Assembly (NCBI GenBank): GCA_964016885.1
Contig: OZ024740.1
Location: 219,418,001-219,482,000, forward strand
DNA length: 64,000 nt
Reading direction: 5' to 3'
Origin: Eledone cirrhosa
Lineage: Eukaryota
How positions within the stretch are numbered: position 1 is the stretch's first letter; each line of letters opens with the position of its first letter. The translations under genes and the position numbers were made by a program. Under the pieces are notes generated by a model, which made no database searches, was not told the origin of the DNA, and saw nothing but the letters and a program-made list of their open reading frames with translations. This document shows positions 1,188 to 58,959 of the stretch, piece after piece.

Positions 1188-1472
1188 ATTATATAAAATA
1201 AACAAAGAAGCCTTCAATACATCAAAAATCTTTATTTGCTGACAGTGTTTCGTCCCATTAACCAGGACTCATCAGACTCATCAGACTGATTAGTCCTGGT
1301 TAATGGGACGAAACACTGTCAGCAAATAAAGATTTTTGATGTATTGAAGGCTTCTTTGTTTATTTTATATAATTTTTCGGCTCTGTTGGAAAACATTGAG
1401 CTATACTCTATACTGTCTTTTCTCTAATACGACGAGTGTGTTTAACTCCAATGCACTCAAGTATTCTAATCT
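1188..1472. mobile_element. Penelope-like pLTR stub with 5' inversion (88-bp inverted arms 1188-1275/1286-1373) in TA tract
   Basis: Arms are reverse complements with one mismatch; both carry a hammerhead core; TA-rich on both sides. Confidence 0.7.
1238..1277 (-). ncRNA. Minimal type I hammerhead ribozyme motif (stem I apparently truncated by the inversion)
   Basis: Minus strand CUGAUGA-GUCC-UGGUUAAUG-GGAC-GAAA-C-ACU-GUC; the + copy at 1286-1320 has CUGAUUA. Confidence 0.7.
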
Positions 1473-1610
1473 TATATATATATATATAGTAATAATAAAT
1501 ACAATAAACAAAACCCAAAGAGGACTCGATAAAGGTATATATATAAACCAGCAAATATTTATTATTAGTACAGATTAAAAGTTTTTAATCTGCACTAATA
1601 ATATATATAT

Positions 1611-1903
1611 GCCCCCACCCCCTCCCACTGTAAAGTGGTCGTGGAGGTGCCACGGGAAAAAAGCACGCAACCCACACTGTAAAGTGGACGTGTAGGCGCC
1701 ACGGAAAAAAGCACCCAGCACTCACTGTAAATGAAGTTGGCGTTAGGAAGGGCATCCAGCTGTAGAAATCAAGCCAAGATCAGTTCCCGTATGAGCAAGA
1801 CAAGGTCAGCCAACTGGACACTGCCCACAACAGGACAACCCGTCTAACCCATGCTAGTGTGGAAGATCGGACGTAAAACAGTGATGATGATGATGATAAT
1901 GAT
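1611..1903 (+). mobile_element. RTE 3'-UTR stub with (GAT)n tail in (TA)n
   Basis: Matches ~2750-3038; ~44-bp AAAAAGCACCCAGC..CACTGTAAAGTGG subrepeats, GTTAGGAAGGGCATCCAGCTGTAGAAA motif, GGACGTAAAA..(GAT)n. Confidence 0.8.
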
Positions 1904-1930
1904 ATATATATATATATATATATATGCATG

Positions 1931-2209
1931 TCTAAAGTCTGTCTTAAGCCAGAAGGCTCATTTGGCCGGTGCTTATCCCAGTTTCATGGCATGAAGCGAT
2001 TGAGAGTACAAGACGTCCCCCTGGACAGAACGCCAGTCCATCGCAGGGTTAAATCCCCAGCTATTGCTAGTACTCATTTTCAGCTGCGTATACTGGAGCA
2101 ATGTGAAATTAAGTGTTTTGCTCAAGAACACAACACGCAATCCACGAATTGAACCCACGACATTATGATCGGAAGTCCAACACACTTATCACTAGGCCAC
2201 ATGCCTCCA
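1931..2209 (-). mobile_element. tRNA-derived SINE with CORE-like central domain
   Basis: Minus strand A-box TGGCCTAGTGAT, B-box GGTTCAATTC, TTCTTGAGCAAAACACTT..TTGCTCCAGT..CAGCTGAAAATGAG; relatives at ~6685, 8712, 30803, 35575. Confidence 0.75.
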
Positions 2210-2402
2210 ATATATATATATATATATATTTTTCTCCCTTTTCTCTCTCTCCGTTTTTCTCTCTCTCCGTCTTTTTCCCTCTCTGTAACACAACAACTTA
2301 CTAATATAAGTAAACAAATCCACTATCCCAATGTCTTCCAAAAGTAATGGTTGCATTTCGTAAGGGTATGTCAATATTTATTTATAAAACTGGTATATAT
2401 TG

Positions 2403-2467
2403 TATTTTGTCTGATGAAAGCATACCATAATTTAACATGGTCTCCTTGAAATATGTATAATAAAATA
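2403..2467 (+). ncRNA. Type I hammerhead ribozyme with intact core, inside TA-flanked insert ~2230-2508
   Basis: Stem I UAUUUUGU/AUAAAAUA; CUGAUGA 2411-2417; stem II AAG/CUU with inner ACCAU/AUGGU; GAAA 2448-2451; stem III AUA-UG-UAU; predicted cleavage after AUA (2459). Confidence 0.78.
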
Positions 2468-2565
2468 GATATCGTTTTATAAATATAGTTTCCATTTGTT
2501 AATATCGTATATATATATATATATATATATATATATATATATATATATATATATATATATATATA

Positions 2566-55711: not shown

Positions 55712-56602
55712 ACCTAGATGATCCGCTGCGGTTTGCCCAAGTCCAGGTTGGCGCAGTCGGAAAATCTAGTCGATATCTATCGGCCAGGTCAAATCGACCA
55801 ATTAACCCTTTGAGGCTATTACACCCCTCTCTATCGGTACAGGCCCCTACGTAGTCCCAACGTGCATCTAGGATACCATTCCAGTCCCCCACTAATAGCA
55901 AGGAGCGGGATGTCCCTAGAAAAGTCTCCAGACGATGGAAGAAGTCCGGCCGCATTGACCCGAAAGGGCCGTAGACAGCTACCAACCTAAACGCTCCGCC
56001 TTCATCACTGCCAAGGTCCAGAACCACTAGTCGACCCTCCGGGTCCAAATGTACCGTCTGTGTTGCGAGACCCAGATGTTTTTGCAGCAGAACGACAACC
56101 CCACCCCCACCTCCGGGCTGACAGAGAGATGCGTGCATCTCAAAGTCATCAAAGGTGGGGACCCGCTGTCGCATGTTGCTGATCCGGGCCTCGCAAATAA
56201 CCATCACATCTATACATTGTGACCTGAGGTCATTTAGAAGTATTGCTTGCTTCCAAGTTGAGCCCAGGCCACGCGCATTTAGACAGATAGATAGATAGAT
56301 GACTAAATAGATAGACAGATATCTAAATAGATAGATAGGTAGAGAGAACAATACATATGAATGTTGGGTTTGTATATATATCAACTACAACTTGATATAG
56401 AAGCTCCATTTTTGTGGTAGAATCACATTTATTATATATTAGAAATTCAAAGACAAAGAGACTATGGCAAAAAATCTAATGTCTAATAAAGGCTCCTGAT
56501 TGTGACAAGAAAGTAGTTTTGCTCAGATTAGACTTGACACCAACATGAAAGATAGACGTTAAATGATGATGATGATGATGATGATGATATATATATATAT
56601 AT

Positions 56603-56892
56603 GGTAAGTAAGTATGTTTTGAAACTGAGCAGGTTTGAATTTAGAAATTAGAATAGCTTTCACCGTATTTTTGACTAAAGGATTTTTAGCCTGATAATGG
56701 GGTTTAGAACCCTCAGATAAATGGAAAAAGATGAGTATTGACATACATGGGAGTTGAACCCACATCTTTGGTTATCGCCAAAGATGTGGGTTCGACTCCC
56801 ATGTACGTCAATACTCATCTTTTTCCATTTATCTGAGGGTTCTAAACCCCATTATCAGGCTAAAATTCCTTCAGTCAAAAATACAGTGAAAG
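56603..56892. mobile_element. TA-flanked fold-back element (115-bp arms 56657-56771/56778-56892) with tRNA T-arm
   Basis: Near-perfect inverted repeat; GTGGG-TTCGACT-CCCAT next to the hairpin centre. Confidence 0.7.
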
Positions 56893-56951
56893 ATATATAT
56901 ATATATTTGCATTCCTTTATTGTGCTACAATAAAACTCACCTCCTACATAT

Positions 56952-57926
56952 ATCATCATCATCATCGTTTAACGTCCATATTCCACGCTTGCATGGGTTT
57001 GGACGTGAGTTTTCCCACTTGAGGCAAGAGTGGTTGTCTTGCTTGCATAGGACTGTCTGGCGGGTTTTCTACGGCTGGATGCCCTTCCTAACACCAACCA
57101 CATTTACAGTGTGGAACTGGGAAGTTTTTACCGTGTTACCTACACGGCCACATTACAGCGTGGACTGTGTGTTTTTTTGTCGTGACACCTACACAACCTC
57201 ATTTGTTTCGGGCTGGATGTTGTGGTACCAACATAACTTTACATTGAAAGGGGTGGTGTGGATGGGGTGGGTAGTGGGACGGGGGTGTATTTTGTTAGAG
57301 GTGCCTACTGACTGTAGTAGGTTTTACTTTGTATTTAGGTAAGGCGGGTCTTCTCTATTACTGAGTACCGCCAAAGGTCTCGGTCCAGTGACATTGTCTC
57401 GGAGAGGTGTAAGTGTGTGAGGTCAGAATTTATCAAGTCGTCCCAGGTTTTTCTGGGTCTGCCTACTCCGTGGCTACCGTCTATTTTTATTGCTCTGCAC
57501 TTTTTTATACAGCTGTCGTCTTTCATGCGCATCACGTGACCATACCAATGTAGTCTTCTCTCGAGTAAACAACATCTGATCCCTCTTATTCCTAATTTTT
57601 CCCTTAGTTCGTTTATGCTTTGCCGTTCACGTATATTACTATTACACATCCAGCGGAGCATGCAAGCTTCGTTCCTCTCTAGTCTGCGTATATCCTCTGT
57701 ACACAATGCCCAGGTCTCACTGCCATGCAACATTGCTGTTCGTATGCAGGCATCATACAGCCTGCCTTTCATTTTTAGGGAGAACCCTTTAGCGGCTAAT
57801 AGTGGTATAAGCTCTCTGAACTTTTTCCATCCAGTTCTGACTCTAGCTACTGTACTTTCAGAGCACCCTCCACCACTGCTGATTTTGTCACCCAGGTAAC
57901 GGAAGCTGTCCACTATTTCTATAGAA
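56952..57926 (-). mobile_element. RTE family A 3' fragment, 5'-truncated into (TA)n
   Basis: ORF 57335..57967 is nearly identical to the C-terminus of 9188..11641; same 3'UTR and (GAT)n tail. Confidence 0.93.
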
Positions 57927-58033
57927 ATATATATATATATATATGTCAACAAGGAAAAAGGAAACACTGGAGAATACTACAATAAAAATGAGGATATAAA
58001 TATTAATTTAACATTTGATGTAGAAAATAAAAG

Positions 58034-58070
58034 AACCTTAATGTTTCGGATGTTCGTCCCTTATCAGAAA
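58034..58070 (-). ncRNA. Degenerate minimal hammerhead in TA-flanked PLE-like stub (~57945-58245)
   Basis: UUU-CUGAUAA-G-GGA-CGAACA-UCC-GAAA-CAUUA-AGG, resembling the PLE-type CUGAUGA..GAAACGUUA. Confidence 0.5.
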
Positions 58071-58959
58071 ATAGAATGAATGGAAGAAGAAATAGAAAGA
58101 CAGATGAGAGTAATACAAAAAAGTATTTTTCAGGAGTCGAAACATGTGTATAGTTAGTCAGCCATTTTGGAAGATTGGAATACAGAATGAGATCCATGGA
58201 TTAAAGAGTTACATGAGGAGAAATAAGCATTGAAGAAGTTGTATATATGTGTATTTGTATTTGTGTTTGTTTTCACAAGCTCTTCCTTGAATCTCTGGGC
58301 CCCAAACTAAAGTATTGGCTGAACTTTTCTCTTATAGGCACTGGCACTGGGTTCCTTATCATTAAAACATCCAAGAAACTTCTTATTATGTTATGTAACT
58401 TTATAGGAGGCTGGCTGAACCTACACAAGTGTGAGCTGTAACAATAACTACAACAATAACAATAATACATCAAACAATGTTGTTCTGGTCAAATTTAGAA
58501 AATTAACCAAGTATTAAATGTGAAATTGCCAAATTTTAGCACACAATAAACAGTCCATGTTGGATGGCCAAAAAATTCTACTTCAGTTTAAATACTACAA
58601 TCGACAAGCTGTCATCAACATATATATCTGAGCTGAAATTTTGCCATAGTGTACTAAGCCTGCCATAGAATAATAATTATTATTAATGTTAAAGTTGAGT
58701 CAATTTAGTATATTTCTTCATATTTTGTGCTGAAAAATGAATAAATATGAATCAACCCCAGTTATTATTTAGTACTTATTATTCTGGTACTTATTTTATC
58801 AATTTTTATTTGTTAAAATGGCAGATTGTAAACATAAACACAAATACAGTCACACATTTATTATGGGGTTTCAGCACAGTTTCCATCTATCAAATTTCAT
58901 TTTCAACTCATGCCAGTCCTTTCCACGGGGTGCAGCGCCATTACCACCTCGCTCTAGAC

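Follow-up and report, generated by a model that had tools for sequence, protein, structure and literature searches.

TA-tract inserts with hammerhead motifs in Eledone cirrhosa: 3' ends of Penelope-like elements and three short units without open reading frames that bear a Penelope-type insertion signature

Penelope-like elements (PLEs) of the Hydra clade have been defined by protein motifs, hammerhead ribozymes and insertion into (TA)n (Craig et al. 2021, PMC8557442), and the supplement of that work gives Hydra-1_Obim from Octopus bimaculoides with a (TA)n preference. Such elements have a C-terminal GIY-YIG endonuclease, the motifs RWK/DKT, a CxCx5C linker, CxxC and CxH, and a 3' hammerhead, and they form partial tandems, inverted 5' copies and tails at (TA)n targets. 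The same features recur in the sequence studied here, a 64-kb window (contig OZ024740.1, positions 219418001-219482000) of the 3.0-Gb genome of Eledone cirrhosa (assembly GCA_964016885.1), which is rich in repeats and TA tracts and whose inserts, together with their relatives elsewhere in the genome, were sorted into families A to K. Published Hydra elements are generally <3 kb, and tails of 30-40 bp are given for Naiads (PMC8557442), whereas here at least three young families have units of 3.6-4.5 kb, 3' untranslated regions (UTRs) of 1.3-1.7 kb and tails of 70-100 nt. Elements resembling the Neptune clade are also present, with reverse transcriptase (RT), a CX4CxxC linker, a C-terminal GIY-YIG domain, a minimal hammerhead and targeting linked to the linker; they differ in that DKG reads DKS and in a very high copy number. 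The labels Hydra-type and Neptune-type are used throughout as assignments by protein motifs and not by RT phylogeny.

The hammerheads resemble the minimal type described for PLEs by Cervera and de la Pena 2014 (PMC4209133), with a short palindromic helix III, an extra base after A9 and a U3-A8 covariant of the core, and also in that opposite-strand pairs lie 100-700 bp apart and most motifs stem from truncated PLEs; unlike those, several families here close stem II with a non-G-C pair, and family K has A at position 4. Short units without an open reading frame (ORF) that carry a type I hammerhead and occur in tandem are known as non-LTR retrozymes (170-400 nt), and their mobilisation by PLEs has been proposed from shared hammerheads, co-occurrence and homology with the pseudo-long terminal repeats (pLTRs) of PLEs (Cervera and de la Pena 2020, PMC7229834; Li et al., bioRxiv 10.64898/2026.07.22.740005). 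In vitro, the Poseidon PLE PAc nicks and extends both DNA strands, starts reverse transcription at two internal sites, which delimit the tail, and still inserts when its hammerhead is mutated (Frangieh et al. 2024, PMC11167929). The inserts described here would fit all three properties. The account of that study, as far as it was available, draws no connection between the two sites and inverted copies and contains no end rule like the one described below. The origin of tandem and inverted Penelope inserts and the mobilisation of retrozymes are stated as open in these sources (PMC8557442; PMC3846280; PMC7229834; bioRxiv 10.64898/2026.07.22.740005). For cephalopods, a 2026 repeat paper on Octopus vulgaris counts Penelope families, and the words ‘ribozyme’ and ‘hammerhead’ do not occur in its accessible text (PMC13282606).

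We consider it likely that the inserts are the 3' ends of several PLE families together with three short ORF-less repeats (E, I and J), and that all of them were placed in (TA)n by Penelope RT/GIY-YIG proteins through two primings. The autonomous elements, their hammerheads, TA targeting, tails and inverted copies are of already known kinds. What appears to be new is the occurrence of E, I and J with a PLE signature and the rule for the ends of fold-backs; the remainder is mostly known biology. The loci analysed (L-numbers) are mostly the best-scoring copies and not a random sample, and the figures from genome searches are first-look candidates, of which 40 per family were scored, and should not be read as copy numbers.

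For families A, B, C, D and G, the inserts are 5'-truncated 3' ends of autonomous PLEs and not mini-elements. Genome searches gave 829 candidates for A, 2197 for B, 2033 for C and 1782 for D; family G had no search of its own, and its copies surfaced within fetched loci. RT and GIY-YIG share one ORF in L085 (A), L086 (D) and L157 (B), each with a frameshift or break, and in L141-L146 (C). The units of A, B and D measure 3.6-4.5 kb and carry partial tandems or inverted 5' copies (L085, L157, L086), with D present in L086 as a 3.6-kb tandem unit with its ORF; pLTRs composed of a partial tandem, an inverted 5' copy and an optional tail were found in L085, L086, L157 and L141-L143. The Hydra-clade motifs RWK/RWR, DKT, CxCx5C, CxxC and CxH occur across A, B and D: the set is complete in D, A has RWR and DKT upstream of its frameshift, and B has DKT upstream of its frameshift, RWK not being seen in this 5'-truncated copy. 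Stop-free frames of 855-1257 aa in family C comprise RT, a CX4CxxC linker and GIY-YIG and are Neptune-type by motif, while its relative G shows the endonuclease part only; both have the CX2-5CxxC linker before a C-terminal GIY-YIG that marks the Neptune clade. Pfam matches to the Neptune-type ORFs were weak and under the cut-off (GIY-YIG E 6e-4, RVT_1 E 4e-4), and the Hydra-type ORFs gave no Pfam match except a chance Dam hit. The homolog search with the family B protein returned 921 matches, and the few names among the best 120 are ‘hypothetical’, one of them from Argonauta hians. Three more Hydra-type families were encountered: one at L120:200-1525 (minus strand), which has a canonical hammerhead of its own, ends at TA and is joined head to head to a family I arm, and two in L121 and L151.

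An earlier note on the window, written from the letters alone, had described about ten type I hammerhead motifs of roughly seven unrelated types and proposed that all lie in one hidden class of ORF-less ribozyme mini-elements. That most window copies are <350 bp, that E and I fit such a class and that F and H have as yet no link to an ORF speak for this proposal. It is contradicted for five of the eight families, as A, B and D (Hydra-type) and C and G (Neptune-type) run into RT or GIY-YIG ORFs, and the family C protein search alone gave 27,086 first-look candidates in the genome; as a view of all inserts we hold it to be very improbable. Its identification of Penelope pLTR stubs that carry type I hammerhead motifs and use TA tracts was right, as was the label ‘retrozyme-like’ for some of the inserts; this label suits E, and also I, which had been overlooked. 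Extension of the inserts into ORFs thus succeeded for A, B, C, D and G, ended in closed ORF-less units for E, I and J, and met no sense ORF beside F and H. Nor are all inserts short, the one with the motif at 31798- being ~950 bp long with a decayed GIY-YIG ORF.

E, I and J are closed ORF-less units of 317, 299 and 260 bp, in which the longest stop-free frames are 54, 88 and 61 aa, respectively; the searches gave 1484 candidates for E and 1137 for J. The E unit has its own 3' end directly before it in 12 of the 12 best loci, and family I forms an array of eight 299-bp units in L147, its core being U3-A8 in four of the seven parsed copies and carrying a C3-A8 mismatch in the other three. By their sequence, E and I fall within the definition of non-LTR retrozymes quoted above; they are unlike the described ones in being mostly dispersed and truncated, with TA ends, tails, inverted arms and a U3-A8 core. 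J is tandem at a period of 260 bp, and exact matches to a 30-base J pattern number 1,854 in the genome, the two arms of a fold-back being counted separately. Among the sequencing runs listed for J there was no RNA run. The unit contains a full tRNA-like cloverleaf (Rfam tRNA, 42.2 bits in L103; called by ARAGORN in 10/12 loci) that includes A- and B-box-like stretches, and a long stem is predicted to enclose this part. We take its D arm to resemble that of tRNA-Gln. The Rfam E-value scan of L103 found no ribozyme family; core-like strings in J from a relaxed scan were rejected by eye, as they have no hammerhead stems, and J was rejected as a retrozyme since no hammerhead was found in the unit. 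Schistosome SINE-like hammerhead repeats, which combine a promoter with a hammerhead (PMC6765202), and tRNA-derived short interspersed nuclear elements (SINEs) are similar to J in the tRNA-like head and the short, tandem-prone unit, and differ in that J has no hammerhead found and ends in PLE fashion at TA, with no simple-repeat tail, instead of in a LINE-type tail (LINE, long interspersed nuclear element).

The insertion signature starts with the 3' ends, which occupy fixed sites in each family: a tail-less end and a tailed end ~25-100 nt downstream, with several tail-less sites in J. A (TA)4 lies at most 5 nt from the 3' end in 196 of 238 terminal copies, compared with 8.2% for random positions in the same loci, which agrees with the enrichment of TA at junctions that had been predicted. 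This count covers A-F, I and K; G was omitted because its anchor also caught C, and J because its anchors failed. By family, (TA)n was found at 8/8 tailed and 6/14 tail-less ends of A, 20/23 ends of B and 6/6 of D, and 20 of the 31 J fold-backs have (TA)3 at both ends. The tails of A, B, D, F, I, K and two additional Hydra-like families share a palindromic 8-base motif with no more than one mismatch, and it often falls in a predicted hairpin; E has it with two mismatches, and C and J lack it. We regard it as a candidate lead for Hydra recognition and not as a test, having been derived from the same tails. Three more TA-bounded stretches of the window (31458-31580, 29801-30010 and 38281-38532) have copies in other loci, and the first of them is like a PLE tail with a degenerate version of the motif. 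Stubs of different PLE-type families stack in the same TA tracts (L156, L177, L178; window 1179-4381 and 30011-32568), so that earlier insertions apparently provide targets for later ones.

Many inserts are fold-backs, with two arms of the element joined head to head, and 93 of the 96 that could be classified combine one tail-less with one tailed arm, where an independent choice of ends would give about half. Families A, B, C, D, F, I and K contributed 58 fold-backs with both arms from the same family, of which 51 were one-of-each, one was two-tailed and six were unclassified. The 31 J fold-backs comprised 26 one-of-each, one exception and four unclassified, and the 22 of E (one locus counted twice) comprised 16, one with both arms tail-less and five unclassified. 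Such a sharp rule in many young copies is a constraint that any insertion mechanism must meet. Per-nucleotide arm differences within inserts were smaller than between inserts in five of six families (C 0.024 versus 0.040, A 0.037 versus 0.098, E 0.063 versus 0.088, J 0.034 versus 0.060 and I 0.041 versus 0.106); thus, the two templates usually had the same source. In these comparisons of arms, two low-complexity rows of family D (L043, L098) were dropped; in the mapping of ends, the bins of family A near 198-252 are low-complexity artefacts.

Self-priming on an antisense template has been proposed for rotifer PLEs (PMC3846280), and fold-backs could arise by such snap-back of a single nucleic acid instead of by two primings. 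The junctions often lie in palindromes (the centre of J, hammerhead stem II), private variants are common to both arms, and in 31 of 51 arm pairs the inner ends coincide within 15 nt, with six more in which the tailed arm contains the other, all of which would suit this idea. In the other 14 of the 51, the arms are non-nested, the tail-less arm extending >15 nt further 5' than the tailed one, in some cases next to a tail-only arm (L068, L072), which rules out that one arm was copied from the other. Also, arms of different subfamilies or families occur together (L101, L120, L262). The one-of-each arms and the non-nested arms favour two primings at two RT start sites, and we consider self-priming unlikely.

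The mechanism that we envisage would begin with the endonuclease nicking both strands of the self-complementary TA tract. Each nicked 3' end would then prime reverse transcription, with the upstream start site used by one of them and the downstream (tail) site by the other, on the same or a sister RNA; both cDNAs would terminate early and then be joined head to head. Two-site priming would explain why the tail is at one end only, which had been noted qualitatively before (PMC8557442; PMC3846280), and fits the non-nested and hybrid arms, unlike the published self-priming idea. For E, I and J, copying would take place in trans, on tandem or circular RNA that exceeds the length of the unit. The hammerheads would act on RNA, mostly as dimers, and are probably dispensable for insertion, because most copies extend beyond the cleavage site and no hammerhead was found in J. 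In family I, 32 of 52 5' ends fall at 156-173, in loop II and upstream of the cleavage site, and no cluster was found at the cleavage site itself (3/52 at 198-209); as the copies stop in loop II, the template would have been uncleaved or religated there. The 5' ends of J include 19 of 81 at 42-59, around the start of the tRNA-like part at 53, possibly reflecting a start by RNA polymerase III (Pol III) or a cut by RNase P, and a larger cluster at 84-101 (29/81) that is possibly an effect of the query choice.

Hybrid inserts without TA at the join were also found. Four of 26 loci selected for family I join it to Hydra ORF sequence of other families (L120, L121, L122, L151). In further hybrids, an I tail meets a B body (L066), J is joined to Neptune family C (L262) or to I (L252), and E is joined to I (L039) or to K; either I or E also occurs with C. 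One hybrid consists of two J subfamilies with 25 differences in 200 nt (L101).

E, I and J might instead be ordinary SINEs or satellites, moved by LINEs (of RTE, L1/Tx1 or R4 type) or amplified locally, that merely resemble PLE inserts. In favour of this, J carries a tRNA-like head in which A- and B-box-like sequence occurs, the window contains LINEs, and one tRNA-SINE family shows an inversion at 49307-49625. Against this reading, the units have no simple-repeat tail and use fixed 3' sites that obey the one-of-each rule; their copies begin upstream of the unit head, in partial tandems, and are spread over many contigs; and some are joined directly to PLE ORF sequence. We therefore judge it improbable, more so than self-priming. 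The PLE insertion signature on E, I and J supports the mobilisation of retrozymes by PLEs, as far as sequence comparison can tell.

Several points weigh against placement by Penelope proteins through two primings. There is no clear sequence shared between E, I and J and the autonomous units A-D, which also suits the SINE/LINE view. TA adjacency above background is found in other retroelements as well (19/49 GAT-tailed elements and 8/46 copies of one SINE family), and the claim of the earlier note that (TA)n bounds every insert holds for 3' ends but not as a general rule, family H having its 3' ends at TA in only 1/7 genome-wide. The arms of family K are less alike within inserts (0.054) than between them (0.030; three pairs), and later gene conversion can yield arm similarity too. 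Since the hybrids cross clades (I and E with Neptune-type C, J with I), the partner enzyme cannot be read from them, and some may be two adjacent insertions fused by a later deletion. Finally, J has a T5 run just after the tRNA-like part, which is expected to stop Pol III and thus speaks against the entire unit being transcribed simply by this polymerase.

A wider reading, to which we give an even chance, is that the Penelope machinery carries SINE-like passengers, including the tRNA-headed and ribozyme-free J, in which the tRNA-like fold would serve as a Pol III promoter or as an RNase P/Z site replacing the hammerhead, and that a single mode would account for all inverted Penelope inserts, namely twin priming in which the two strands of a cleaved TA tract each start at one of the two RT sites, at times on different RNAs. 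J would be of interest as a possible tRNA-headed PLE passenger, and the three short templates of 260-317 nt are suited to a direct test of trans-mobilisation. In the literature that was accessible (outside subscription journals, Repbase and Dfam), we did not find a description of a tRNA-headed PLE passenger, of twin priming of PLEs, of the one-of-each rule or of ORF-less units that show the PLE insertion signature in full; the supplements of the bioRxiv paper may list relevant families.

All ten hammerhead motifs reported for the window are present at their positions, and they belong to eight multi-copy families rather than seven unrelated types, those at 17673/17878 and 31798 being related (72% over 440 nt). 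None of the families is single-copy, with 324-2197 first-look candidates per searched family. A strict type I descriptor matched four times in the window and once in all 30 dinucleotide shuffles, in line with the expected excess over shuffled DNA; a relaxed descriptor gave three matches, one of them probably by chance, versus a mean of 0.5 in eight shuffles. No hammerhead was reported by Rfam at the gathering score in the window, and minimum free energy folds of six hammerheads against 200 shuffles had little discriminating power (z from -2.1 to +0.2). The core is intact in seven of the ten motifs (1238-, 2403+, 17673-, 17878+, 18279-, 30316+ and 31798-), counting the covariant U3-A8 core of 30316+ at 30321, which is a published variant of PLE hammerheads (PMC4209133). 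The 1238- motif has its intact core at 1275, with the 5' strand of stem I replaced at the fold-back centre, and 31798- has one mismatch within stem I. The other three are mutated (1286+ at G8, 31254+ at G5 and 58034- at G8), and the canonical core predominates in their families (8/9 parsed distinct copies in A, 6/9 in F and 6/9 in H). Stem covariation, proposed as a check, was found in part. Stem II of B scores 52 of 54 as paired, with 12 double-change cells (0 of 1000 shuffles had as many), stems I and II of E have three each (2 and 3 of 1000 shuffles) and stem I of A has four (8 of 1000), while C, F and H show no double change. Stem II of A and of I were excluded from these counts, which are not probabilities, the copies being related.

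Families F (324 candidates) and H (830) have no sense ORF beside their loci, and neither was tied to a closed unit; one F locus (L083) has an antisense Hydra-type ORF ~240 bp upstream. Family K (L007, L071, L160) has a hammerhead-shaped fold with A replacing U4 in the copies examined and stems I-III paired by eye, and its longer copies contain internal ~140-bp repeats. The features of the window are given in Table 1. Both arms of the family I fold-back there end within loop II of the hammerhead, and in the J copy the tRNA-like part is represented by its 3' half alone.

Table 1. Penelope-type inserts and hammerheads of the window (positions counted from its first letter)
Feature	Position	Strand	Details
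Family A fold-back of head-to-head Hydra-type PLE 3' ends	1190-1472		tail-less arm 1190-1276 (-), tailed arm 1286-1472 (+), tail 1373-1472
Family A hammerhead cores	1275 (-); 1286 (+)		1275: intact core, stem I lost; 1286: G8 mutated
Family K remnant	1489-1601	-	~70% to other copies; tail and short fold-back, hammerhead no longer present
Family B stub, Hydra-type PLE 3' UTR end	2239-2507	+	tail-less end at (TA)29
Family B minimal hammerhead	2403-2470	+	stem III self-complementary
Family I fold-back, absent from the earlier note	3058-3275		tailed arm 3058-3182 (-), tail-less arm 3218-3275 (+)
Second family I stub	4234-4356	+	tailed 3' end flanked by TA tracts
Family C fold-back, Neptune-type PLE	17521-18129		tail-less arm 17521-17832 (-), tailed arm 17842-18129 (+), tail 18069-18129
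Family C minimal hammerheads	cores 17711 (-), 17882 (+)		intact
Family D stub, Hydra-type PLE	18181-18504	-	tailed end at (TA)25, hammerhead core 18345-
Family E insert	30035-30522		inverted arm 30035-30140 (-), partial direct repeat 30133-30205, full tailed unit 30200-30522 (+)
Family E U3-A8 hammerhead	30314-30362	+	
Family F stub	31253-31313	+	hammerhead with G5 mutated
Family G, 5'-truncated Neptune-type PLE	31603-32551	-	hammerhead core 31834-, 3' end at (TA)11
Family G decayed GIY-YIG region	32551-32154	-	62% identity to family C protein, E 2.6e-38
Family G copy, final 48 bp	48683-48730	+	stops at TA tract
Family J fold-back, absent from the earlier note	56603-56893		tailed arm 56606-56776 (-), tail-less arm 56778-56891 (+)
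Family H stub	57945-58112	-	old (~75% to other copies), hammerhead core 58067- with G8 mutated

Other repeats share the window with these inserts. LINE copies with RT and AP-endonuclease, presumably RTE-like, lie at 9188-12531 (-), 14800-17466 (-), 3-439 and 56967-57926 (Pfam RVT_1, E 2.7e-31), and they terminate in GAT repeats that TA frequently follows. At 50566-56384, the minus strand has broken LINE-like ORFs, interrupted by a plus-strand transposase-like ORF with one stop (53610-55427), which we take to be hAT-like. A tRNA-SINE-like family of ~190 bp has at least ten copies in the window (e.g., 49099-49625, 8290-8472), and at 49307-49625 a truncated inverted copy stands head to head with a full one between TA tracts, resembling the PLE fold-backs. 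A tRNA-like SINE head at 30805-30871 is the sole match at the Rfam gathering score in the window (31.3 bits). The window also contains a minisatellite at 21257-22232, with 29 copies of 34 bp, and, at 32990-34128, a TA array of 1.1 kb with interruptions.

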